From the IMG/VR virus record IMGVR_UViG_3300044796_000401: a stretch of 64,000 bases of DNA. One strand, written 5' to 3'. How positions within the stretch are numbered: the first letter of the stretch is position 1; each line of letters opens with the position of its first letter. Source of the stretch: a virus. Its lineage: Duplodnaviria; Caudoviricetes. The notes under the pieces are model-generated. The model was not told where the DNA came from and did no database searches. It saw only the letters and a program-made list of their open reading frames with translations. Made by a program: the position numbers and the translations under genes. Below are positions 1-42,236 of this stretch, piece after piece.

Positions 1-2
1 GT

Positions 3-170
3 CCTGTCAACACTGAAGAAATGAAAATTGTATGCCCCGAAGATTGGAAGCGGTTTTGCGAAATCAAACAACAAATTTTCTCGCTCATGCGGGAAGCGGA
101 CGAGATTGCCCCCCGTTTAAGGGAGGCCGCTTTACTCCAACGCTCACAAATTGTGGAGTTAAAGGGATAA
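3..170 (+). CDS. 3' end of a hypothetical protein (partial, runs off window start)
   Basis: Open frame PVNTEEMKIVCPEDWKRFCEIKQQ...ELKG ending TAA at 168-170. Confidence 0.5.
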   Translation, partial: PVNTEEMKIVCPEDWKRFCEIKQQIFSLMREADEIAPRLREAALLQRSQIVELKG

Positions 171-186
171 TTCCCAAAAACAGTTC

Positions 187-216
187 TTGACAGTTTTCCG
201 GCTACCGCGGTATTAT
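187..216 (+). promoter_or_regulatory. sigma70-type promoter of tRNA array 1
   Basis: TTGACA (187-192), 18 nt, TATTAT (211-216); ATG follows 6 nt later. Confidence 0.8.
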
Positions 217-222
217 ACAGAC

Positions 223-303
223 ATGGTTCGCATACCCATATCGTCGTCATCCAGTAGCCCCTCAGGGGCGGGCGGCGGTGTGCGCGATACCTTCGAAGAT
301 TAA
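223..303 (+). CDS. Putative attenuator leader peptide 1 (26 aa, MVRIPISSSSSSPSGAGGGVRDTFED)
   Basis: Leaderless ATG; codons ATA x2 and TCG TCG TCA TCC AGT AGC ... TCA match the downstream Ile(TAT) and four Ser tRNAs. Confidence 0.75.
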   Translation: MVRIPISSSSSSPSGAGGGVRDTFED

Positions 304-326
304 GAGAGCACACAGAAGCAGTAAGC

Positions 327-360
327 GCCGCCAGACAGTTTTGGCGGCTTTTTTGTTTTT
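327..360 (+). terminator. Intrinsic terminator/attenuator upstream of tRNA array 1
   Basis: GCCGCCAGA (327-335) / TTTGGCGGC (340-348) then TTTTTTGTTTTT; the 5' arm can instead pair with GGCGGCG (271-277). Confidence 0.8.
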
Positions 361-363
361 AGC

Positions 364-455
364 GGAGACGTGGGTGAATTGGCAAAACCACCACACTGCT
401 AATGTGGGGCTTCCAGAGATGGGGCATCCGGGGTCGAGACCCGGCGTCTCCGCCA
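364..455 (+). tRNA. tRNA-Ser(GCT)
   Basis: GGAGACG/CGTCTCC acceptor, CCACA-CTGCTAA-TGTGG anticodon arm, long variable arm, encoded CCA. Confidence 0.92.
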
Positions 456-464
456 AGTTTAAGC

Positions 465-556
465 AGTCCCGTAGTTTAACGGTAAAACAGCGGTCTTATA
501 AGCCGCAAGCTCTCGATTGGAGCGCGTTGAAGGTTCGAATCCTTCCGGGACTACCA
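465..556 (+). tRNA. tRNA with TAT anticodon (nominally Ile, reads ATA) and an atypical long variable arm
   Basis: AGTCCCG/CGGGACT acceptor, GCGGT-CTTATAA-GCCGC arm, ~22-nt variable arm, GAAGG-TTCGAAT-CCTTC, A73, CCA. Confidence 0.85.
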
Positions 557-560
557 GTTT

Positions 561-642
561 GGGGACGTGGCTGAGTGGCTTAAGGCGCACACTTGGAAAG
601 CGTGAAAGCGTGCCGTGGGTTCGACTCCCACCGTCCCCGCCA
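561..642 (+). tRNA. tRNA-Ser(GGA)
   Basis: GGGGACG/CGTCCCC acceptor, loop TTGGAAA, G73, CCA; variable arm short for Ser. Confidence 0.88.
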
Positions 643-653
643 AAGTTGAATAC

Positions 654-748
654 GGCGAGTTGGCTCAGTGGCTACAGCACCCGCCTCGAAAGCGGGCAAA
701 TGTCGGTGATCCCGGCATACGGGGGTTCGAGTCCCTCACTCGCCGCCA
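654..748 (+). tRNA. tRNA-Ser(CGA)
   Basis: GGCGAGT/ACTCGCC acceptor, CCCGC-CTCGAAA-GCGGG, long variable arm, CCA. Confidence 0.92.
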
Positions 749-799
749 AAATTGTGAATGTAAGGATTGAACTATCAACTCCTATGTATGGAGGCATTT

Positions 800-1498
800 A
801 TGGTAGTTCATACGGTGTATAAAACCACAAACTTGGTCAACACTTGTTTTTACATAGGCATGCATAAAACGGCAAATCCGAACGACTCGTATTTGGGGTC
901 GGGCACGGTGATAAAACGGGCGATCAAGAAACATGGTGCAGATAGGTTCAAAAAAGAAGTTCTGTTCGTCTTTCTAACCGCAAAAGAGGCCGCGGACAAA
1001 GAAGCTGAACTGTTGTTAGCTGAGAAAGTCAGCCCGCTTTGCTACAACTTGCACGAGGGCGGTAGCGGGGGTTTTGAATACATTAACAAGCACTATGCTC
1101 ATATGAAGCGTAAGTTGTTTAAGAAGGCTGAAATCGTTAGGCTAGAAAAGTTAAGGACCGATCCCGAGTTTCGCAAACGCGTTGGTGAACGAATCAGTAA
1201 GGCCCAACGCAAGAAATACAAAAGTGACCCAGAATTTCTGGAAGCCGCCAGAAGAAGAGTTTTGCTGCTTCAGCCGTCAGCCGTGGAGGTTTGGCGTGGA
1301 CAGAAGCACACTAAAGAGACCAGAAAAATTCTCAGCGACAACCACCGGGGGGAGCGGAATTCAATGTTTGGAATGCATTGGATGTATAATGATGACACCC
1401 AACAGTCGAAGCGGTTTCCTAAAAATGAAACAACAGCACAGCAACAGGTAGGATGGCAGTTGGGAAGAAAATTCTACGGAAGAGTGGCCGAACGGTAA
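800..1498 (+). CDS. GIY-YIG homing endonuclease (Seg-like, NUMOD3 motif)
   Basis: VYKTTNLVN..FYIGMHKT..NDSYLGSG, HEGGSGG, WRGQKHTKET; GGAGG RBS before ATG 800; lower GC than flanks. Confidence 0.88.
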   Translation: MVVHTVYKTTNLVNTCFYIGMHKTANPNDSYLGSGTVIKRAIKKHGADRFKKEVLFVFLTAKEAADKEAELLLAEKVSPLCYNLHEGGSGGFEYINKHYAHMKRKLFKKAEIVRLEKLRTDPEFRKRVGERISKAQRKKYKSDPEFLEAARRRVLLLQPSAVEVWRGQKHTKETRKILSDNHRGERNSMFGMHWMYNDDTQQSKRFPKNETTAQQQVGWQLGRKFYGRVAER

Positions 1499-1568
1499 GG
1501 CATCCGCCTTGAAAGCGGACGATGCCTTGAAAGGGTTATGGGGGTTCGAATCTCCCCCTCTTCCTCCA
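1478..1568 (+). tRNA. tRNA-Ser(TGA)
   Basis: GGAAGAG/CTCTTCC acceptor, TCCGC-CTTGAAA-GCGGA, long variable arm, CCA. Confidence 0.88.
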
Positions 1569-1585
1569 TTTCCAGTATTAGTCCT

Positions 1586-1712
1586 TGCGTGGTGCCGCGA
1601 GCGGCAACGCCGCGGGGTGAAATAAAACTGTCAGGGACAAAGACCCCTAAGGGTGAATGGCGTTAACTGGCAGTAAAAGTAGCCGAGTGCCAACATTAAC
1701 CTTCACCACGCA
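1586..1712 (+). ncRNA. Unidentified structured RNA candidate
   Basis: TGCGTGGTG/CACCACGCA closing stem, GCG-GCAA-CGC hairpin, nested GTTAA/TTAAC and TGGCA/TGCCA stems. Confidence 0.4.
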
Positions 1713-1718
1713 CATCCT

Positions 1719-2015
1719 ATGGAAGAACACTATTGCGATGTCCAGATTTTCAAGGGTCCGTGCGACTGCAAGATAAGCTGCGAGAAGTGCCGGATCGGCT
1801 GCTTCAAGCCCGCCAAGTTCCGGAACCCCTCGTACGATCCGGACGGGTTGGTGAAGGGCACGATCTACAATTACGCCGAATGGTTATGCGCTTCTCACTG
1901 GGATGAAGCGGTGGCATACAAGGAAGAGTATGACGACAGGGTGGAACAGGGGATGTCCGACGATTTTGACTGTAGGACAGGAACGAGATTTTTTGGCGGA
2001 GGACTAGCATGGTAA
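1719..2015 (+). CDS. Hypothetical Cys-rich protein
   Basis: 98-aa ORF with CxxC pairs, overlapping the next start. Confidence 0.6.
   Translation: MEEHYCDVQIFKGPCDCKISCEKCRIGCFKPAKFRNPSYDPDGLVKGTIYNYAEWLCASHWDEAVAYKEEYDDRVEQGMSDDFDCRTGTRFFGGGLAW
1972..2007 (+). repeat. 36-bp dispersed direct repeat, copy 1
   Basis: GTAGGACAGGAACGAGATTTTTTGGCGGAGGACTAG; 1 mismatch to 18691-18726. Confidence 0.85.
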
Positions 2016-2317
2016 AGTACACGATCACGGCGAGCAAGGACTCGAAGACGGTCGCCGTCCGCTATCATCTGGAGGTCCCGGCCGGGGGGCCCGAGCTTAT
2101 CGCCCGCTTCTCCTTCTACGTGGACGGCAGCGACGCCATCAAGGAAAGCGCCTCGGGGAACACCGTGTTCAGCGGCACCGCGTTCGCCAAGCTCGCCGAT
2201 GGGGCCAAGGACGTGGCTGTGAGCTTCGCCATCTCGTCCAGCACCGGGTGGACGGCGGACGGCTCGGACACGCTGCGCGGCGGGCACCCGTATGACGACT
2301 CGGAGTTCTCGAACTGA
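2009..2317 (+). CDS. Hypothetical protein
   Basis: GGAGG RBS, phage-like codon usage. Confidence 0.7.
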   Translation: MVKYTITASKDSKTVAVRYHLEVPAGGPELIARFSFYVDGSDAIKESASGNTVFSGTAFAKLADGAKDVAVSFAISSSTGWTADGSDTLRGGHPYDDSEFSN

Positions 2318-2475
2318 TGCACACGTGCAACAAGATGTTGCCGGACTCGGCGGGAGGATATTCGCAATGCCAAAAGCCTGCCGTTCGGTCTGCACTGCTT
2401 GGCTGGTGCGGCGATGTTTTCCAGCACCGCATAAAACCCAGCAGCATACGGTTGGTCTCGCCACATCAACTGAGG

Positions 2476-2504
2476 TAGCCAAAATCCCCGGTTCCCTGTA
2501 TACT
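2476..2504 (+). promoter_or_regulatory. TAGCCA-N17-TATACT promoter (member of a dispersed family)
   Basis: Motif recurs about 12 times in the window; ATG 6 nt after the -10. Confidence 0.75.
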
Positions 2505-2510
2505 ACGGGT

Positions 2511-2822
2511 ATGGAAACCGTATCAGTTTACGTGCTCATCGAGTCGACCGTGCTCCCGAAGGGCAGGATCAACCGCAACGTGGGCGTCACCACGGACCTC
2601 GACGAGGCCAAGGACCACAAGGCCCGGAACCCCGTGCCGGGCACCGGCACCTCCTACATCGAATTTGACTACCAGGAATTCACCACCGCCACCGACCTCT
2701 TCGTGGCTGGCGCTGAATCCGCGCTTTTTATGAAAGAAATGGAGCAGTTCAAGGAAACCGTCCAAGGCGTCCGCGACAGGCTCGTGGACACCATGATGGG
2801 AAGGCAACCGCATGCTCGATAA
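2511..2822 (+). CDS. Hypothetical protein (probably leaderless)
   Basis: ATG 2511 in frame with track ORF 2292-2822, directly after promoter. Confidence 0.7.
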   Translation: METVSVYVLIESTVLPKGRINRNVGVTTDLDEAKDHKARNPVPGTGTSYIEFDYQEFTTATDLFVAGAESALFMKEMEQFKETVQGVRDRLVDTMMGRQPHAR

Positions 2823-3065
2823 CCAGCAATGGGATACGTTGCAGGACCGGATCGCCAGCGCCATATGCGCCAGCACGGGCGGAACAACCCAAGGCGGCGG
2901 CCGAACAGTATGACAAGATGTTCAAGTATCGCCGCGGCTGCAGCATGATCTTGCTGGACAAGTGGAGCGAGGCCTCGTGGATGCGCAAGCGCCCGACGTG
3001 GCACACCGCGGGCTATTCGCCATCGCTCGAAGAGGCGTTGGCCGTCTTCGAAAAGGACTGGAAAA

Positions 3066-4286: not shown

Positions 4287-4511
4287 ATGATCATTCGGTT
4301 CGCCAATTTCGTGCTCATCCTGTGCTACATTCTTCTTGGGCACAATCGCTTTAGGGCTGGATGGGCCGCAAGCGTCACGGGAAATTTGATTTATGTGGCC
4401 ATGATGCTGCGCATGCACCGCTTTGACCTTGCATTTTTGCCAGCAACCTTCACAATACTAGCAGGGTGGAATCTATGGGTCCTCGTCAAGCGCCAGAAAT
4501 CTACGAACTGA
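4287..4511 (+). CDS. Small membrane protein
   Basis: Three hydrophobic segments. Confidence 0.55.
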   Translation: MIIRFANFVLILCYILLGHNRFRAGWAASVTGNLIYVAMMLRMHRFDLAFLPATFTILAGWNLWVLVKRQKSTN

Positions 4512-6601
4512 TCGTCGGGAAAACGGATTACCCGTACCTCGACGGGACCGTCCATCTCTTCGTCGGCGGCTCCGCGGCGCACGGCGCGAAGCTCGAAGGC
4601 AAAAGCGACTTCGACCTGCTCGGCGTGTACGTCCCACCGATAGAGGAGGTCGTCGGCGTCCGCGGCGTGGACGAGCATTGGGTCTGGAGCACGGCGGGGG
4701 ACAAGGTGCGCAACGGCGCGAACGACATCGACATGAACATGTACTCCCTTCGCAAATGGGCAAGGATGGCAACATCCGGCAACCCGAGCGCCATCGAGTT
4801 CATGTTCGTGGACAACCTCGCTCCCAAGAGCGACATCTGGGAGCGCTTCGTCACGCCGAACATCCCCGTGTTCCTGAGTTCCCACGCCGGGCTGCACTTC
4901 CAGAAATTCTGCGAGCACATGCTCCGCACGCTCAAGGGCGAGGGGCAGGGCAAGCGTGGAAAGCGGCTGGACTTGATCGCCGAGTTCGGCTACGATTGCT
5001 ACGACGACAGTCAAACCGAGTTTCTTACCGACCGTGGTTGGAAGAAATTCGATGGTGTGTTAAATTCAGACAAGGTAGCTGCTTTCGACCCGCTCACAGG
5101 CGAGATCAAGTTTGAAACTCCGCTATCTAAAATAGACAAACATTACTCTGGGTTGTTGTATGAAGTAGAGCCCCAGCTTACACGATGCGTAGTAACTCCC
5201 AACCACAACATGGCAGTTTCTCCAGCTTCCCGCAACCCAAAAACAAACTTCAGCACTAAATTTGATCCCGGCAAGGCAGACTGGGGTCTTGTTCCTATTT
5301 CAAGTTTAATGTCCGGGGTCAAAAAGCGTGTAGCGCGTTCTATGTACCACATTCGCCGCGCAGGATCGAGACGGGATCAAAGATTTGATGTTCAATCCGA
5401 ATACCTGCTCTTGGCTGGGATGTACTTGTCCGAAGGTTCAATCGCCTTTTACAAAAGTAAAACGGGGAAAAAAGTGAAAGCCGCCCGTCTCACCCGGACT
5501 AAAGAAGGCAAAGACGAATACTATAAGTATGCCGATAGGCTGATTCGTTTATTCCAAGGGCACCGCCATGACTATCCCCGTAAGCATGTTGAGTGTGAAA
5601 CCACTTGGGTTTTTCCTCGTAAAATTGCTAGACAGATATACGCAGATTTTGGACATCATAAGGAAAAGCACCTTCCCGATTGGTGTTTTCGGTTATCATA
5701 CGATCAGGCATGGGAGATGTGGAACGGCTTGTGCTTGGGGGATGGAACTCGCATTAAAACAAAGCGGAGCGTAGGGCAGGGCGTTGTATTTTACACATCT
5801 GTCAAGAATCTGGCGGATGACATACATGCAATGATGGTTTCATCCGGGCACATATGCGTGGTAAACGGACCATATGGCCCCTATGGATACGAACCGAAAA
5901 GCGCGTTCGGTGATTGTGCGATGTACCAAGTATATCGTCCAGACGATCAAAATCCGTATCGATGTGTGAATTTTAGAAGCGGTATCTTGAAAACCGGAGA
6001 GGAACCGGACCTCGAAAAGGGATACTCTATCAAAGAATCCCTCGTAGAAAACCGTCGAATCGTTTGCTTTGAAATGCCATCTGGCACGCTTATAACTCGC
6101 AGTAATGGACGACCCGCATTCCAAGGCAATAGCAAGGCAGCTATGCACCTGATCCGCGTGCTCAACGAGGGCATCGAGCTCATGGAGACGGGCAGGATCA
6201 CGCTGCCCCGCCCCGAGAAGGAGCACCTGATCGACATACGGAAGGGCAAAGCCGGAACCCTGAAGGACATCGAGGACATCGCGCAAGCGCTTTTCACCCG
6301 GCTCGAATCCGCACGGCTGGCCTCCGCCCTGCCACCGGCGGTCGATCTCGGCAAGGTCAGCGGCATCATTACCTCCGCGCAGGAGACGGTCTGGAACCAA
6401 AGCAACGAGGTCTTGCAGATCATAAGCAAGGCGTTCTCCGTATCAGCGTGGTGGATCGCCTCGCACAACAAAGCCAACCCGACGCCCTTGACAGGGAAAT
6501 GGGATGAGTGGCAAGATCAGAAGTGGGTCGAGAGGGAGATGGTCAAGGTGGCGATGGACCTCCACGAGAAGGAGAAGGCCGATGCCAAAAAAGGCGTCTA
6601 A
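4466..6601 (+). CDS. Pol-beta superfamily nucleotidyltransferase (Nuc-transf type) interrupted by an intein
   Basis: GGSAAHG..KSDFDLLGVY motif; exteins rejoin as FGYD/SKAAMHLIR, like the conserved YGYDxKxAMH motif. Confidence 0.85.
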   Translation: MESMGPRQAPEIYELIVGKTDYPYLDGTVHLFVGGSAAHGAKLEGKSDFDLLGVYVPPIEEVVGVRGVDEHWVWSTAGDKVRNGANDIDMNMYSLRKWARMATSGNPSAIEFMFVDNLAPKSDIWERFVTPNIPVFLSSHAGLHFQKFCEHMLRTLKGEGQGKRGKRLDLIAEFGYDCYDDSQTEFLTDRGWKKFDGVLNSDKVAAFDPLTGEIKFETPLSKIDKHYSGLLYEVEPQLTRCVVTPNHNMAVSPASRNPKTNFSTKFDPGKADWGLVPISSLMSGVKKRVARSMYHIRRAGSRRDQRFDVQSEYLLLAGMYLSEGSIAFYKSKTGKKVKAARLTRTKEGKDEYYKYADRLIRLFQGHRHDYPRKHVECETTWVFPRKIARQIYADFGHHKEKHLPDWCFRLSYDQAWEMWNGLCLGDGTRIKTKRSVGQGVVFYTSVKNLADDIHAMMVSSGHICVVNGPYGPYGYEPKSAFGDCAMYQVYRPDDQNPYRCVNFRSGILKTGEEPDLEKGYSIKESLVENRRIVCFEMPSGTLITRSNGRPAFQGNSKAAMHLIRVLNEGIELMETGRITLPRPEKEHLIDIRKGKAGTLKDIEDIAQALFTRLESARLASALPPAVDLGKVSGIITSAQETVWNQSNEVLQIISKAFSVSAWWIASHNKANPTPLTGKWDEWQDQKWVEREMVKVAMDLHEKEKADAKKGV
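4997..6130 (+). mobile_element. Intein with LAGLIDADG endonuclease (378 aa)
   Basis: N-terminal CYDDSQTEFLTDRGWKKF, blocks LAGMYLSEGS and WNGLCLGDGT, C-terminal VCFEMPSGTLITRSNGRPAFQGN then Ser+1; AT-richer than exteins. Confidence 0.9.
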
Positions 6602-10004: not shown

Positions 10005-10669
10005 GCACATTGACATAAGTTAGCATATTTCGGCGACTTCTGCGAACGCAATGCGATTTACGTTAGCTGGGAACTTTTGGCCGATGCGAAACAGCTTGCT
10101 TCATTCGTGACCGCCGAACTCAACCGTGCGATCTTTACGTATGAGGAAAACGCGTTCATCAACGGCACCGAGCCCGACCGAGCCGATACCATCACCAATG
10201 AACGGATCGCATCGCTTCCCGCCGAAGTCCGGGAAGCCATCAGAGGAGGGAAGTAATGGCAAAAGAGACAGCGAAAAAGAACCACGGGGAGAGAAAAGAC
10301 CCCGGCATGGCGGACAAATTCCGGAACCTGCGCAGGGAGACGAACGCCCTCCGGCCGAAGCAGCGCTGGGTCGGCGAGCACGCCAACCTCGGCCAAGCCG
10401 CCGGGCACTGGGAGCGGTAGTTCGGGGGAACGGAATGATCGAACGATTTTTCAACTGGCTCAGAGCCGCGTTGACATCCGATATGCCACCGGAGCCGGGG
10501 GCCGATCCCAACCCGAATTGCATGGGGCACGGCGCGAACAACGTTCCCGGCTGCATCTGCCGCCTGCTTTACTACCGCCAGTGGTTGGGCCACGACTAGC
10601 GGAAACCCGTTGAAACCGCTGGTTTTAGCCCTGGCCTGATCTTTCTTGAAATATTTTCGACAATTCCCC

Positions 10670-10697
10670 TTGATTTTCCCGCTGTCCGGTGTATTAT
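10670..10697 (+). promoter_or_regulatory. sigma70-type promoter of tRNA array 2
   Basis: TTGATT (10670-10675), 16 nt, TATTAT (10692-10697). Confidence 0.65.
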
Positions 10698-10701
10698 GTA
10701 G

Positions 10702-10830
10702 GTGCACAGTATCGTGGTTAAGAACATGACCCTCAGGAAATCCAATTCGACGAGAGCCGCCCGAAAGCATCAGGGCGACGGCCAGCGGTGGAATACCGCG
10801 GCGGGTCTGTTCGATGGGTGGGACGAGTAA
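10702..10830 (+). CDS. Putative attenuator leader peptide 2 (42 aa from GTG 10702; 34 aa from ATG 10726)
   Basis: MTLRKSNSTRAARKHQGDGQRWNTAAGLFDGWDE; contains a codon for all ten anticodon types downstream. Confidence 0.72.
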   Translation: MHSIVVKNMTLRKSNSTRAARKHQGDGQRWNTAAGLFDGWDE

Positions 10831-10855: not shown

Positions 10856-10895
10856 AAACCCGCCGACCGAGAAGGTTCGGCGGGTTTTTTGTTTT
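10856..10895 (+). terminator. Intrinsic terminator/attenuator upstream of tRNA array 2
   Basis: AAACCCGCCGACC / GGTTCGGCGGGTTT then TTTTTTGTTTT; 5' arm can instead pair with CGGCGGGT (10799-10806). Confidence 0.82.
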
Positions 10896-10969
10896 AGGGG
10901 AGTCGTCCAACGGTAGGACTCTGGTCTCCAAAACCAGGTATGGCGATTCAAATTCGTCCTCCCCTGCCA
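10896..10969 (+). tRNA. tRNA-Trp(CCA)
   Basis: AGGGGAG/CTCCCCT, CTGGT-CTCCAAA-ACCAG, CCA. Confidence 0.92.
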
Positions 10970-11010
10970 AAGTTTAAGCCGTGTCCGTGAGTTAGCCGGG
11001 CACGCAGGGT

Positions 11011-11086
11011 GTGGCCGTGGCAACTATTGGCATGTTGCACCTGTCTGTGGAACAGGGTCTTGTGGGTTCAATTCCCACCGGTCACC
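11011..11086 (+). tRNA. tRNA-His(GTG)
   Basis: GTGGCCG/CGGTCAC, CCTGT-CTGTGGA-ACAGG, C73; no encoded G-1 or CCA. Confidence 0.8.
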
Positions 11087-11131
11087 CTTTCGTGACTTCC
11101 TGAGTATTAAGTAGGGTGCTCAGGAGGGTTC

Positions 11132-11974
11132 ATGATGTTTTACACGGTGTACAAGACGGTTAATTTGCTGAACGGTGAGTACTACTTCGGGGTTCACAAG
11201 ACTGAGAATCCCAAGGATGTTTATCTCGGTTCCGGGACATACATCAAGCGAGCCGTTGCCAAGTGCGGGGAACAGAACTTCCGCAAGGAAGTGCTGTTCA
11301 CCTATCTCGATGCGAAGTCGGCGTTCGGTAAGGAGGACGAACTGATTCAAAGTTATCGCGGACGTGATTCGCTGTGTAAGAATCTGAGAAAGGGCGGTAG
11401 CGGTGGGTTTGATTGGATCAATGAGAAGGGATTAAACGGCACCAAAGTAGCTAGGGCGGCTGGGGTAGAAAAAAGACGGAGAGATACTTTTCGTAAACGA
11501 TGGGAGAATGATCCAGCGTTCAGGAAAAAGCTTTCGAAAAACGGACGAAGAGCCCTAAAATGTGTTTCCGATGAAACCAGAAAAAGGAATCTTCTTTTAG
11601 GCGCGAAAGCTTGGAAAGGACAACACCACACTAAAGAGTTTCGAGAACGAAAAAGCCAAGAACAACGCGGAATTAACAATTCCCAATTTGGCTGCCGATG
11701 GATGAGAAAGGAAGGGGTTGTACGGAAGGTTGCTCGAACTGAAGTTGAGAGGGCTTTAACTGAGGGATGGTTATTTGGAAAAGTCGCACCTAAAGTACGA
11801 CAAAAACAAACTAGAAAACCAACATTAAACGAGCAAGCCCCCAAAGGAACCCGTTGGTGTTCTAGTCACAAACAATTTTTGGATGTTCAATTGTTTCACG
11901 GGAAATATAAATATTGTAAGGCATGCCGAAGAACTCAAAGAATTATTCGGCGTCAGCGGTTAGGACATTGGTAA
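11132..11974 (+). CDS. GIY-YIG homing endonuclease
   Basis: YTVYKTVNLLNGEYYFGVHKT..YLGSG, NLRKGGSGG, NUMOD3-like WKGQHHTKE, C-terminal Zn ribbon. Confidence 0.88.
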   Translation: MMFYTVYKTVNLLNGEYYFGVHKTENPKDVYLGSGTYIKRAVAKCGEQNFRKEVLFTYLDAKSAFGKEDELIQSYRGRDSLCKNLRKGGSGGFDWINEKGLNGTKVARAAGVEKRRRDTFRKRWENDPAFRKKLSKNGRRALKCVSDETRKRNLLLGAKAWKGQHHTKEFRERKSQEQRGINNSQFGCRWMRKEGVVRKVARTEVERALTEGWLFGKVAPKVRQKQTRKPTLNEQAPKGTRWCSSHKQFLDVQLFHGKYKYCKACRRTQRIIRRQRLGHW

Positions 11975-11981
11975 AAGTTTT

Positions 11982-12058
11982 GCGCCCGTAGCTCAATGGA
12001 TCAGAGCGTTCGGCTACGAACCGAAAGGCTGCGAGTTCGAGTCCCGCCGGGCGCACCA
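11982..12058 (+). tRNA. tRNA-Arg(ACG)
   Basis: GCGCCCG/CGGGCGC, TTCGG-CTACGAA-CCGAA, CCA. Confidence 0.93.
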
Positions 12059-12079
12059 GATTTTTGAAGAATGGGTTTT

Positions 12080-12157
12080 GCGCCTGTAGCTCAGTTGGAG
12101 CAGAGCGTTCGCCTCCGAAGCGAAAGGTCGCGAGTTCGAGTCTCGCTAGGCGCACCA
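12080..12157 (+). tRNA. tRNA-Arg(CCG)
   Basis: GCGCCTG/TAGGCGC, TTCGC-CTCCGAA-GCGAA, CCA. Confidence 0.93.
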
Positions 12158-12167
12158 GATTTGAGTT

Positions 12168-12254
12168 CGGCCCTGTCGGCAACTGGACAGTCGGCTTCGC
12201 TACGAACGCCCAGCCCTTCGGGGAATGCAGGTTCGAGTCCTGTCACCCGTTCCA
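12168..12254 (+). pseudogene. tRNA-like element: class II-like 3' half, no matching 5' acceptor strand
   Basis: CCC-TTCG-GGG variable arm, GCAGG-TTCGAGT-CCTGT T arm, CACCCGT-T-CCA; no complementary 5' strand found upstream. Confidence 0.5.
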
Positions 12255-12258
12255 GTTT

Positions 12259-12334
12259 TGGGAAGTGGCGCAATTGGGAGCGCAGCGGGTTCTGAACCCG
12301 AAGGTTGTTGGTTCGAACCCAACCTTCCCAACCA
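12259..12334 (+). tRNA. tRNA-Gln(CTG)
   Basis: TGGGAAG/CTTCCCA, loop TTCTGAA, CCA. Confidence 0.88.
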
Positions 12335-12339
12335 AGTTT

Positions 12340-12414
12340 TGGGGTGTGGTCTAACGGTAAGGCACCGCACTGTTAATGCGGACGATGAAGGTTCGAGTCC
12401 TTCTGCCCCAGCCA
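12340..12414 (+). tRNA. tRNA-Asn(GTT)
   Basis: TGGGGTG/TGCCCCA, CCGCA-CTGTTAA-TGCGG, CCA. Confidence 0.9.
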
Positions 12415-12432
12415 AGTTTTGAAGGGAGACTG

Positions 12433-12579
12433 ATGGGAACAGCTATTGCGGTGATTGCGAGTTTTATCTTGGGCGCTGTCATGGACCACTTCTTGGAAGC
12501 GCGAAGCGCCAAGGCCGTAACGACGGCGATCAAGCATTTGGAAGATAGCGTTGTGGCGGAGATACGGAAGTTGCGGTAA
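12433..12579 (+). CDS. Small membrane protein inside tRNA array
   Basis: GGGAG RBS; MGTAIAVIASFILGAVMDHF... Confidence 0.55.
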   Translation: MGTAIAVIASFILGAVMDHFLEARSAKAVTTAIKHLEDSVVAEIRKLR

Positions 12580-12590
12580 AAAGTTTCAGT

Positions 12591-12665
12591 TCCCCGTTAG
12601 CTCAGTGGCAGAGCGTTCGGCTGTTAACCGAAGTGTCGGGAGTTCGAATCTCTCACGGGGAGCCA
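12591..12665 (+). tRNA. tRNA-Asn(GTT), second copy
   Basis: TCCCCGT/ACGGGGA, TTCGG-CTGTTAA-CCGAA, CCA. Confidence 0.93.
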
Positions 12666-12671
12666 AGATTT

Positions 12672-12746
12672 GGGTCTGTAATTCAGCGGCAGAAAACCTC
12701 GCCCTTAACGAGGGGGCCGAGAGTTCGAGTCTCTCCAGACCCACCA
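12672..12746 (+). tRNA. tRNA-Lys(CTT) with C33
   Basis: GGGTCTG/CAGACCC, CCTCG-CCCTTAA-CGAGG, CCA. Confidence 0.87.
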
Positions 12747-12747
12747 A

Positions 12748-13275
12748 ATGCAGACTCTTATTATGAATTCAGTATTAAGAGTCATGGAACAGGAAAAAGT
12801 ATGCTGCCGATGTAAGGCTCCTAAACCAGTTGACGCTTTTAACTGGAAAAATCGAGCTAAAGGAATTCGACAGAGTTTTTGTCGGACGTGTAAAAAGGAG
12901 TATCAAGGCACTTGGTATAAAAATCACAGAGACGAGCAACTAGCACGAATCCTAGCTAGAAAAACTCGTATTGTGAAAGAAAACCAAGATCGCATTTGGG
13001 TTTATTTGAAGGAACATCCATGCGTTGGCTGTCCTGAGAATGATCCGGTTGTTTTAGATTTTGACCATGTACGTGGGGCTAAAAGAGTGGAAATCTCTAC
13101 GATGTTAGCCCACGGATGTGCATGGAAAAGCATCTTGAAAGAGATAGCTAAATGCGAAGTTCGCTGTAGAAATTGCCATCATCGCCGACATGCGGTGGAA
13201 CTTGGCTCTTGGCGAGTAACGCAAGCTTCACAAGATTGCGCTCATAGCTCAACTGGGAGAGCAGGAGACTCTTAA
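12748..13275 (+). CDS. HNH homing endonuclease (start uncertain; ATG 12763 or 12784 also possible)
   Basis: CCRC..CRTC; HPCVGC...LDFDHVRG...CEVRCRNCH. Confidence 0.85.
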   Translation: MQTLIMNSVLRVMEQEKVCCRCKAPKPVDAFNWKNRAKGIRQSFCRTCKKEYQGTWYKNHRDEQLARILARKTRIVKENQDRIWVYLKEHPCVGCPENDPVVLDFDHVRGAKRVEISTMLAHGCAWKSILKEIAKCEVRCRNCHHRRHAVELGSWRVTQASQDCAHSSTGRAGDS

Positions 13276-13313
13276 TCTCAAGGTTGCAGGTTCGACCCCT
13301 GCTGGGCGCACCA
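13238..13313 (+). tRNA. tRNA-Lys(CTT), canonical
   Basis: GCGCTCA/TGGGCGC, loop CTCTTAA, CCA. Confidence 0.92.
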
Positions 13314-13362
13314 GATTAAACTGGAAGGACTTTTGAGTTCTTCTGGTAGAAGGGAAGTTGTT

Positions 13363-13941
13363 ATGGGAACTGACACACTAGTGCTTGACATGACGGGAAC
13401 CCCCATCGGGTTCGTCGGCTGGCAGAAAGCCGTGACCATGGTGTGGAAAGATCGTGCTATGGTCATGGATGAAGATTCGGAAAAAATTTTGAGGTCGCCT
13501 TCGTTCGAGATGGGCATGCCCACGGTCATCCGTGCGAGGAACTGGGTGCGCCGCCGTCGGAAGACCGCGGTCCCGTTCTCCCGCCGCAACGTTGCGGTCA
13601 GGGACAACAGCGAGTGCCAGTACTGCGGCAAGCTGCTTCACCTGCCGGAGTACACGCTGGATCACGTGGTCCCGAGGGTCCAGGGCGGATCGAGCAACTG
13701 GAAGAACCTCGTGCTGGCATGCATCAGGTGCAACAAGCACAAGTCCGGGAGCACCCCGGAACAGGCCGGAATGCGTTTGCGCAGGATGCCGTTTGAGCCG
13801 AAGCCGGACGACCCGAAGTACAACTTCAAGCTTCGGATCAAGAAGATGCATCCGAGTTGGCGGCCGTATGTGGACGGCGGCTGGCTGTATGCCGAGAAGG
13901 CCGCCTACGCGTATTGGAACGTGGAACTCTCGGAGAAATAG
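13363..13941 (+). CDS. HNH endonuclease (McrA/HNH_5-like)
   Basis: VLDM..P...WQKAV...PTVIR...PFSRRNVAVRDNSECQYCG...TLDHVVPRVQGG..WKNLVLAC..CN..K. Confidence 0.88.
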   Translation: MGTDTLVLDMTGTPIGFVGWQKAVTMVWKDRAMVMDEDSEKILRSPSFEMGMPTVIRARNWVRRRRKTAVPFSRRNVAVRDNSECQYCGKLLHLPEYTLDHVVPRVQGGSSNWKNLVLACIRCNKHKSGSTPEQAGMRLRRMPFEPKPDDPKYNFKLRIKKMHPSWRPYVDGGWLYAEKAAYAYWNVELSEK

Positions 13942-13944
13942 GTT

Positions 13945-14179
13945 CCACGGGAGATCGGCTCAACGGAAGGTCAGGATTGAGCCGGACCATCGTGGTCGCC
14001 GCCAGGCGATGCCGGTGGCAGGACGGGAGAGGGCGATGTGGAGGCCCTCTCCCGTACGGAATTCGGTCGGTAGCTACGGCTCCCGGCGATAGCCCGAGGC
14101 GCTTAGTACAGGCGTTCGGGCGGGGAAGCTCTCTTGTCCCCCATCCTGCGGTTGAGAGTCCGTGGCCACGGATCGCAGG
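13945..14179 (+). ncRNA. Unidentified highly structured RNA candidate inside tRNA array 2
   Basis: Perfect 12-bp stem 14023-14034/14044-14055, 7-bp stem 13957-13963/13977-13983, CCTGCG/CGCAGG 14145-14179. Confidence 0.45.
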
Positions 14180-14185
14180 AAGCAC

Positions 14186-14261
14186 GGCCCCATAGTTCAA
14201 ACGGACAGAACGCTAGTTTCCTAAACTTGAAATCCCGGTTCGAGTCCGGGTGGGGCCGCCA
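14186..14261 (+). tRNA. tRNA-Arg(CCT)
   Basis: GGCCCCA/TGGGGCC, loop TTCCTAA, CCA. Confidence 0.9.
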
Positions 14262-14280
14262 GATTTTGATTGAAGGATGT

Positions 14281-14355
14281 TGCTTTGTCGTCTAATCGGC
14301 AGGACACAGGTCTCTGGAACCTGTTATAATGGTTCGAGTCCATTCAAAGCAGCCA
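14281..14355 (+). tRNA. tRNA-Gln(CTG), second copy
   Basis: TGCTTTG/CAAAGCA, CAGGT-CTCTGGA-ACCTG, CCA. Confidence 0.9.
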
Positions 14356-14621
14356 ATTTTATGACGAAGGCGAAGTCGCTCAAACAAGTCGTTGCAACCG
14401 CCCGCAAGAACGGGAAGATGAGGATGTCGCAGGCGTATTTCGACCTGATGCTTGAGGGGATGCAGATGCCCGAAGAGCTCGGTAAAGCAGCGGTAGAGGC
14501 GGCAAAAAGGAAGAAGTGATGCAGGCTCTCGCACAACTCGGTGTCGCAACGGGATTCGTCGTGATCCTTGTCGGGTTGCTCTTTCTTCCCAACCTCAGAC
14601 GAAAACGTTGATCCCACCTCC

Positions 14622-14698
14622 GCTCCCGTCGTCCAATGGAATAAGGACGCTAGTCTTCTAAACTAGGAATATGGGTTCAAGTCCCATCGGGAGCCCCA
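14622..14698 (+). tRNA. tRNA-Arg(TCT)
   Basis: GCTCCCG/CGGGAGC, CTAGT-CTTCTAA-ACTAG, CCA. Confidence 0.92.
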
Positions 14699-14708
14699 AT
14701 CTTTCCGT

Positions 14709-14784
14709 GGGCTGCTAATTCAATTGGCTAGAAGCGCAGACCTTTAATCTGTTAATTTCGGTTCGAGTCCGGAGCGGCCCACCA
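14709..14784 (+). tRNA. tRNA-Lys(TTT) with C33
   Basis: GGGCTGC/GCGGCCC, GCAGA-CCTTTAA-TCTGT, CCA. Confidence 0.87.
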
Positions 14785-41423: not shown

Positions 41424-42236
41424 ATCTGACGAGACCAGAAGCAGGGACTTTCGAGCCTCTGCTCCTGCTCTCAAGGCAGGAATCCGATCCGATCTGATGG
41501 GATACGACATGACAAGATGCGACTGGAACCGATATGATGCGACATGCTGAGATTAGAGGCAAGGGGCTTCGGCCCTTTGCTCCTGCTCTCAAAGGCAGGA
41601 CTTAGACCTGACCCGATAAAATACGATGTGATATGACCCGGTGGGACGTGACAAGACCCGACACGTTGAGATTCGAGGCAAGGGGCTTCGGCCTTTTGCT
41701 CCTGCTCTCAAGGCAGGCTGTGATTAGATAAGATATGATGGGACGTGACGGGACGTAACTTGACGCGCCAAGCTGAGATTCGAAGCAAGGGGCTTCGGCC
41801 CTTTGCTCCTGCTCTCAAGGCAGGCTGAGATAAGATGCGACGTAACAGGGTGTGATGTGACGTGATTTGTTAAGACGTGGCGGGACATGGCGAGACCAGA
41901 GGCAAGGGGCTTCGGCCCTTTGCTCCTGCTCTCAAAGCAGGAATCGTTAAGATAAGAATAGATGCGGCGCGATGCGATTCGATTGGATTGGAAGGGATTG
42001 GTTCTGATAGGTTGAGTTCAGAAGCAAGGGGCTTCGGCTCTTTGCTCCTGCTCTCAAAGGCAGGATGCGATTTGATTTGATTCGATTGGATTGGACAGGA
42101 TTGGACACGATGGGACCAGACATGTTGAGACCTGAAGCAAGGGCTTTCGAGCCTTTGCTCCTGCTCTCACGGATGGGATGCGATGTGATGGGACATGACG
42201 TGATGGGACTGGATAAGACGCGCTGAGACGAGACAC
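41424..42236 (+). repeat. 7-unit array: conserved ~45-50 nt double-hairpin block alternating with 13-16 in-phase GAY-NN pentamers
   Basis: Block GARGCAAGGGGC-TTCG-GCCYTTTGCTCCTGCTCTCAA(A)GGCAGG with GARGC at 41438, 41556, 41675, 41782, 41899, 42021, 42134; tracts unique in NN. Confidence 0.95.

Follow-up and report, generated by a model that had tools for sequence, protein, structure and literature searches.

How phages control the expression of their tRNA genes is a question to which we know of essentially no answer; the genes are usually seen as constitutive helpers of codon usage or as decoys against tRNA-targeting defences. The question is raised with unusual directness at positions 187-360 of a 64,000-nucleotide (nt) stretch of viral DNA (Duplodnaviria; Caudoviricetes; IMG/VR record IMGVR_UViG_3300044796_000401), hereafter the window, where a promoter, a small open reading frame (ORF) and a terminator stand directly in front of an array of tRNA genes. 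The window derives from a large uncultured phage and contains, besides 18 tRNA genes, genes for several homing endonucleases and for a helicase and a protease of phage type. An earlier note, written from the letters of the DNA alone, had read the element as a trp/his-type attenuator whose leader peptide samples the codons of the tRNAs encoded behind it. The codon content of this leader, its folding, a diverged relative, a second leader in the window and the layout of a cultured phage all support that reading, and we consider that the element is probably a ribosome-mediated leader-peptide transcription attenuator gating a phage tRNA operon.

A promoter, a mini-ORF and a terminator precede the first tRNA array

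All features of the window described here lie on the + strand. The promoter of leader 1 is of the sigma-70 type, with a -35 element TTGACA (187-192), an 18-nt spacer and a -10 element TATTAT (211-216), matching 11 of 12 consensus positions and confirming the promoter proposed in the earlier note. A gap of 6 nt separates the -10 hexamer from an ATG at 223, the seventh base past the hexamer and the usual sigma-70 +1 position, so that the leader 1 mRNA would be leaderless. This ATG opens leader ORF 1 (223-303), 26 codons followed by TAA (301-303), in which the run ATA CCC ATA TCG TCG TCA TCC AGT AGC CCC TCA occupies positions 232-264; coordinates and codons are those that the note had given. An intrinsic terminator follows at 327-360, comprising a stem at 327-348 (9 pairs, 6 of them G-C; hairpin -14.7 kcal/mol) and a T run at 349-360, and it ends 3 nt before the first tRNA gene.

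The array behind the terminator encodes tRNA-Ser(GCU) (364-455), reading AGU/AGC; a tRNA with anticodon UAU (465-556), reading AUA and bearing a class II long variable arm; tRNA-Ser(GGA) (561-642), reading UCC/UCU; tRNA-Ser(CGA) (654-748), reading UCG; and tRNA-Ser(UGA) (1478-1568), reading UCA. The first four were identified by tRNA detection and Rfam, the last by tRNA detection. All five tRNAs that the earlier note had listed are thus present, although they do not follow one another without interruption, as tRNA-Ser(UGA) is set apart by an inserted GIY-YIG/NUMOD3 homing-endonuclease gene (800-1498), which terminates inside the start of that tRNA. The order promoter, ORF, terminator, tRNAs leaves no room for another promoter, and a promoter scan found none elsewhere for this array or for the second tRNA array of the window described below. 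Terminators directly before a tRNA occur at the starts of these two arrays and at none of the internal gaps, in the window as in the relative introduced below.

Leader ORF 1 samples the codons of its own array

The codon run includes at least one codon for each of the five downstream tRNAs. To quantify this match we took codon usage in 45 long ORFs of the window as background and 473 small ORFs of the window as a comparison set. The seven codons that the five tRNAs read between them account for 6.2% of the background, yet 9 of 25 codons of leader ORF 1 belong to this set (codon-usage null, P ~1e-5), and each of the five anticodons is represented (same null, P ~4e-4). Full coverage of the five anticodons is also seen in 12 of the 473 real small ORFs, because off-frame ORFs in this DNA are Ser-rich. 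The clustering is more discriminating: the best 9-codon stretch of leader ORF 1 holds eight codons of the set and covers all five anticodons, the most extreme value among the 473 small ORFs, the next best reaching six. The earlier note had further stressed two ATA codons as rare in GC-rich DNA. The rarity stands, with 6.4 ATA per 1000 codons in the long ORFs compared with 29.2 for ATC, whereas the description of the DNA does not, its G+C content being only about 51-60%.

Leader 1 RNA is predicted to adopt mutually exclusive structures

The minimum free energy (MFE) fold of the free leader consists of a long hairpin, in which positions 237-248 pair with 271-282, followed by the terminator (z = -3.5). 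We refer to the two arms of the hairpin as regions 1 and 2. Region 1 (237-248) comprises ATA and the first Ser codons and pairs with region 2 when free of ribosomes. Region 2 (271-283) comprises the Gly/Val codons 17-20 and the first base of codon 21, lies just 3' of the regulatory codons, and is the partner of both region 1 and region 3. The 1:2 helix is capped by an inner hairpin at 257-269 (5 pairs, UCA loop), possibly a pause hairpin, in which a C-to-U change in the relative leaves a G-U pair. Region 3 (308-332) contributes two segments, 308-313 and 326-332, to pairing with region 2 in the truncated fold, and 327-333 serves also as the 5' arm of the terminator (3:4).

Folds truncated at the end of region 3 were used to represent the state before region 4 is synthesised. 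The truncated fold without a ribosome contains the 1:2 hairpin (-23.4 kcal/mol), with region 3 left unpaired. With region 1 masked, the MFE structure of 270-334 is the antiterminator, 271-277 paired with 326-332 and 278-283 with 308-313 (-21.7 kcal/mol), with the stop codon in its loop. This is the very structure that the earlier note had drawn, and its claim that antiterminator and terminator exclude one another is likewise upheld in silico, since both use positions 327-332. A partner for the terminator 5' arm of the quality of region 2 arose in 87 of 2000 dinucleotide shuffles, the sample used for all shuffle tests reported here. In equilibrium folds of the full leader with ribosome masks the terminator was never lost, because an A-rich segment pairs with the U tail.

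A second leader matches a second array

The layout recurs in front of the second tRNA array of the window. A promoter (10670-10697; TTGATT, 16-nt spacer, TATTAT), kept in the relative, precedes leader ORF 2 (10726-10830; 34 codons and TAA; 92% identical in the relative) and an intrinsic terminator (10858-10895; terminator detection), which lies directly before tRNA-Trp (10896). Array 2 (10896-14784) contains 13 genes of ten anticodon species: Trp CCA, His GUG, Arg ACG/CCG/CCU/UCU, Gln CUG, Asn GUU and Lys CUU/UUU. Within leader ORF 2, 13 of 34 codons cover all ten species (P ~3e-4, codon-usage null), and no other ORF of the 473 small ORFs reaches even nine of the ten. Its four Arg residues are specified by four codons for four different tRNAs, and both Lys codons are present.

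The match is array-specific: leader 1 matches array 1 and not array 2 (9 and 2 codons), and leader 2 shows the reverse (2 and 13; Fisher P = 9e-4). Leader 2 has, immediately 3' of its regulatory codons, an 8-nt region 2 (10799-10806) that is the exact complement of the terminator 5' arm, a feature reproduced in 13 of the 2000 shuffles. The antiterminator of leader 2 holds in truncated folds with a ribosome on codons 2-21 and is lost beyond. An upstream in-frame start, GTG at 10702 (ATG in the relative), was considered for leader 2 and set aside, as it lies 5 nt past the -10 hexamer and is probably not transcribed.

The two leader promoters are alike beyond their hexamers (176-222 and 10655-10705), with a T-rich CC..GCT..CCGG spacer and the same TATTAT, a likeness in sequence that suggests a common origin or a common regulator.

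A diverged relative retains the codons, frame and pairing segments

The phage occurs in pond and peat metagenomes from several studies, according to public-run metadata, and a blastn search with positions 1-3000 of the window found no match in 50,697 deposited phage records. A diverged relative was found in IMG/VR contig UViG_3300010339_000002, the only one, whose leader 1 is 76% identical overall. Scanning IMG/VR with an exact pattern that included the terminator gave no further homologue, and with a region 2/3 pattern this relative was the sole match. The region 2/3 pattern had 45 matches in metagenomes, 44 of which are unrelated G+C-rich coding DNA, and a protein search, with the gene that follows the array as query, returned the same phage and the same relative only. 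The relative carries the same five tRNA species in slightly different order; it lacks the first endonuclease insertion, and its Ser tRNAs are contiguous.

Leader 1 of the relative retains the -10 hexamer, the promoter spacer and the distance of 6 nt to the ATG. A 9-nt insertion follows the ATG and 6 nt are missing, leaving the frame intact, and the regulatory run reads ATA followed by eight consecutive Ser codons in which all six Ser codons are used. Of four substitutions in the conserved core, three are synonymous third-position changes and one replaces Pro by Ser. Regions 1, 2, 3 and 4 are identical. By contrast, the 17-nt spacer before the stop is ~70% substituted at unchanged length, with no stop created and the TAA aligned, the C-terminal third of the leader peptide is unconserved, and the terminator loop is replaced on a persisting stem. 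The energies of the 1:2, 2:3 and 3:4 structures (-25.5, -24.9 and -18.7 kcal/mol) are similar to those of the window. Conserved pairing segments, regulatory codons and frame combined with free spacer and loops form the mosaic that an attenuator predicts, and the conservation of ORF, Ser/ATA codons, pairing segments and terminator agrees with the interpretation offered in the earlier note. In leader 2 of the relative, the frame stays intact through a 3' indel, and the hairpin carrying the stop codon is rebuilt from different sequence. A third strain, ~99% identical and present in two runs, differs within the leader in the terminator loop alone.

A leader that displays the codons of the tRNAs it controls might also be expected of T-box-like sensing, in which an untranslated leader RNA would bind uncharged tRNAs directly through codon-like triplets. 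We give this explanation virtually no credence. No T-box model in Rfam matched positions 1-2000 even at E values up to 1, the leader is far too short for the architecture of stem I, specifier and T-box, a single RNA would have to read five to ten different tRNAs, and the reading frame is conserved.

Transcript data and the boundaries of the element

Among assembled metatranscriptome contigs, one RNA-library contig spans positions 5-355, crossing the promoter and ending in the U tract of the terminator, and none covers 356-550; its depth is ~5-12, and DNA carry-over is possible. Two further runs, X21 and X22, were rejected as RNA evidence, their contigs being long, DNA-like and derived from a variant strain.

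Since the contig crosses the promoter, it could be taken to mean that the terminator just ends the upstream gene, whose stop lies at 170, and that the promoter-like site and the ORF are chance intergenic features; no other terminator lies between that gene and position 327. This is very improbable. The relative has a different upstream gene and nonetheless keeps the order of promoter before terminator, the ATG spacing and the ORF, the same order is found again at the second array, and the promoter agrees with the consensus at 11 of 12 positions.

The end of the contig at 355 would also suit a discrete small transcript of ~130 nt, bounded by a strong promoter and a strong terminator and stably folded, as the z score above indicates. 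The transcript would then be the product itself, either a small regulatory RNA or the message of a Ser-rich micropeptide, with the tRNAs expressed by incidental leak-through or upstream transcription. We regard this as quite improbable: no Rfam family matches the leader, the C-terminal third of the peptide is unconserved, neither array has another promoter to rely on, and chance would have to have matched leader codons to downstream tRNAs twice.

The layout recurs in the Caulobacter phage phiCbK

Three cassettes of a promoter-like site, a mini-ORF and an annotated terminator are present in the tRNA region of the cultured Caulobacter phage phiCbK (JX100813). They lie at 48.1, 49.5 and 51.3 kb and precede Glu/Asp, Pro/Pro/Lys/Lys/Leu x3/(Ala)/Ser x2, and Phe/Val/Ile/Ile/Val/Gln/Gln tRNA genes, respectively, and among the downstream anticodons their mini-ORFs cover 2 of 2, 9 of 10 and 7 of 7, in that order. 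Each mini-ORF covers a share of the anticodons of its own array that is at least as large as its share of any other array's. The phiCbK genome paper makes no mention of leaders or attenuation (PMC3556154).

Proposed mechanism

From these elements we infer a transcription start at the leader, translation of the leader ORF, and regulated read-through into the tRNA genes. Transcription would start with the A of the ATG at 223 or with a neighbouring base, and a ribosome would load on the leaderless 5' AUG and trail the RNA polymerase. If the ATA and Ser codons at 232-264 are decoded fast, the ribosome would move over region 2 (271-283) to the stop at 301; with region 2 covered, or with the ribosome at the stop, the 3:4 terminator would form and the transcript would end at ~355. 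Slow decoding of any sampled codon would instead leave the ribosome parked on region 1 (237-248), and the free region 2 would capture region 3 as it emerges. Formation of 2:3 would preclude the terminator, and the polymerase would read into tRNA-Ser(GCU), tRNA(UAU), tRNA-Ser(GGA), tRNA-Ser(CGA) and tRNA-Ser(UGA). One stalled codon of any sampled kind should suffice to open the switch. If no ribosome loads, 1:2 and 3:4 would fold and termination would follow, which would also block read-through from the upstream gene.

Because the tRNAs produced would relieve the stall that induced them, the circuit would be one of negative feedback, supplying tRNAs on demand. What triggers it is a matter of speculation, with anticodon nucleases and starvation as candidates. 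Going further, we tentatively raise the possibility, which we ourselves hold to be doubtful, that each of the two leaders senses the decoding capacity of the host through several inputs. The arrays would stay silent until a cognate codon becomes slow, and would act as an inducible counter-measure to tRNA depletion, for example by anticodon nucleases acting on Lys, Asn, His, Arg, Gln or Ser tRNAs, that shuts itself off once supply is restored. Given that phiCbK has the layout too, such sensing would amount to a general and undescribed principle of control for phage tRNA genes.

Points against attenuation and the possible role of a dedicated factor

Several findings weigh against attenuation by a translating ribosome. 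The first concerns initiation. By sequence inspection, no Shine-Dalgarno (SD) sequence precedes the ATG of leader ORF 1, and none precedes leader ORF 2, which would need initiation on an SD-less 5' untranslated region of ~22 nt; other genes of these phages, or genes near similar promoters in the metagenomes, appear to have GGAG sites. For leader 1, an SD-less ATG at the predicted +1 in both the window phage and the relative is consistent with leaderless initiation.

The second concerns energetics. At equilibrium, the terminator together with a partial 2:3 helix (-26.7 kcal/mol) is more stable than the full antiterminator (-21.7 kcal/mol), and the switch must therefore be kinetic, as the trp attenuator switch is usually described to be. 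The 1:2 duplex, though part of the MFE fold and conserved, is no better than in shuffles (716 of 2000), and the UCG repeats of the Ser run could be there in part just to pair with the G-rich region 2.

The third concerns comparative and transcript data. The comparison is between two diverged sequences, in which base-pair covariation within regions 1-4 is not countable, and the RNA evidence consists of low-depth assembled contigs. Co-variation of leader and array was seen neither between the window phage and its relative nor between phiCbK and CcrRogue, comparisons of little power in which the leaders are 92-97% identical. CcrRogue has lost both Ser tRNAs behind its Pro/Lys/Leu array, and its mini-ORF (L081, 49745-49882), 97% identical to that of phiCbK, keeps the Ser codons. 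Where the window has tRNA-Arg(UCU) (14622-14698), the relative has an unrelated second tRNA-Lys(UUU) (L001, 19995-20070). Its 69-kb fragment yielded no tRNA-Arg(UCU), yet AGA is kept in its leader 2.

The missing SD sequences and the thermodynamically favoured terminator would fit a different kind of control, in which attenuation is constitutive or depends on a factor. The terminator would then act as a fixed dimmer, or an antiterminating protein or RNA of the phage would override it, in the manner of lambda Q at PR'-tR' or of HK022 put, and neither the ORF nor its codons would matter. Promoter, short transcript, terminator and genes is the layout of the lambda late operon too, and leader promoters as similar as these two could share a regulator. 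We nevertheless judge this explanation unlikely. It leaves unexplained why two leaders match their own arrays in codon content, why indels are in frame and substitutions fall in third positions, why the regulatory codons lie just 5' of region 2 in both leaders, and why the layout recurs in phiCbK. Moreover, the proteins scanned included none recognisable as Q- or N-like, although most window proteins lay outside that scan. The doubled, array-specific codon match is explained by none of the four alternatives considered here, and ribosome-mediated attenuation remains the reading that we favour.

Relation to known regulatory systems

The leader resembles trpL, hisL, leuL and pheL of E. coli and Salmonella in its promoter-proximal mini-ORF with a run of regulatory codons, its four RNA segments with predicted alternative 1:2, 2:3 and 3:4 pairings, and a terminator before the first gene. 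As in those systems, a stall on the regulatory codons is proposed, here from the sequence, to favour the antiterminator. Unlike them, the leader would regulate tRNA genes and not biosynthetic enzymes, its signal would be the decoding capacity for particular codons or tRNA species, with synonymous codons diversified accordingly, its ORF is SD-less and apparently leaderless with the stop between regions 2 and 3, and the element is viral. The multivalent leaders of ilvGMEDA (Ile/Val/Leu) and thr (Thr/Ile) provide a parallel for a single peptide that samples several inputs, any of which can cause a stall and read-through. They sample two or three amino acids, however, whereas leaders 1 and 2 would sample five and ten tRNA species, respectively, and the species sampled are those that the operon itself encodes.

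Attenuation that acts on the machinery by which the sampled codons are decoded also has precedents in the pheST and hisS/hisZ leaders, those of hisS/hisZ in bacilli being leader-peptide attenuators of translation-apparatus genes (PMC2965389). These control aminoacyl-tRNA synthetases through a single amino acid, in contrast to control of the tRNAs themselves. T-box riboswitches share the terminator/antiterminator switch, the response to tRNA status and the translation-related target genes, but they are untranslated and bind one uncharged tRNA directly, and none of their models matched here. The lambda PR'-tR' region (6S RNA), finally, likewise pairs a phage promoter with a strong terminator within ~130-200 nt that has to be overcome; Q works from the promoter and does not require an ORF, unlike the conserved, codon-matched ORF and RNA antiterminator of the present leaders.

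In all leader-peptide attenuators described to our knowledge, the regulated genes encode enzymes of amino-acid biosynthesis or aminoacyl-tRNA synthetases; here they are tRNA genes. A full-text literature search found no description of leader-peptide attenuation of tRNA genes, an absence of evidence from an incomplete collection. The class of mechanism is thus a textbook one, and what is undescribed in the literature found is the tRNA target, the input from several tRNAs with diversified synonymous codons, and the viral setting. If the reading is correct, phages gauge how fast individual codons are decoded and produce tRNAs as they are needed, and the logic of trp/his attenuation extends from amino-acid supply to tRNA supply. 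It would also allow prediction, from sequence only, of the tRNAs that form a functional unit for a phage. Caulobacter with its phage phiCbK offers a tractable system in which the idea can be tested directly, and leaders of this type could find use as natural sensors, compact in size, of how available tRNAs are.

The long-arm tRNA(UAU) and other features of the window

The tRNA(UAU) of array 1 combines its class II long variable arm with A73, C4-G69 and U12-A23, and its variable-arm stem is kept in the relative by a compensatory change from U-A to C-G. A matching long-arm tRNA(UAU) locus lies at 1598-1690 of L002 on the - strand. The same D-arm sequence picks out tRNA(UAU) genes of 92-96 nt in 17 other viral contigs (IMG/VR loci L058-L074), within quite different arrays, and Lactobacillus phages hold similar genes, annotated as tRNA-Ile. 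In these 17 unrelated contigs, no perfect-stem terminator was found within 45 nt of the array start, a result to be read as a lower bound because the same crude scan missed the bulged terminator of the relative.

Next to it in array 1, tRNA-Ser(GGA) measures 82 nt and the relative's copy 90 nt, the 8-nt shortening lying in the variable arm, and the window tRNA may be impaired for recognition by seryl-tRNA synthetase. Homing-endonuclease genes lie inside both tRNA arrays, with a phrog_314 homing endonuclease and an HNH gene at 11132-11974 and 13333-13941 in addition to the GIY-YIG/NUMOD3 gene of array 1 (800-1498). Between the arrays, positions 4466-6601 encode a 711-residue protein with an RlaP domain (RNA-repair-pathway nucleotidyltransferase), a possible context of tRNA repair or supply.

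A segment of ~65 nt that includes the leader 1 promoter (151-216) recurs with 6-8 differences on several contigs from the same metagenomes, where the copies precede unrelated sequence, some with GGAG and ATG; two sites on the contig of the relative match it as well. Judged from its sequence, the segment may represent a promoter cassette that has been repeated, or else a mobile-element end. Elsewhere in the window, at 41509-41590, a promoter-like site of good quality (ATGACA and TATGAT, 18-nt spacer) has an ATG 5 nt further on and then a G+C-rich hairpin, and this site may hold another leaderless mini-ORF.

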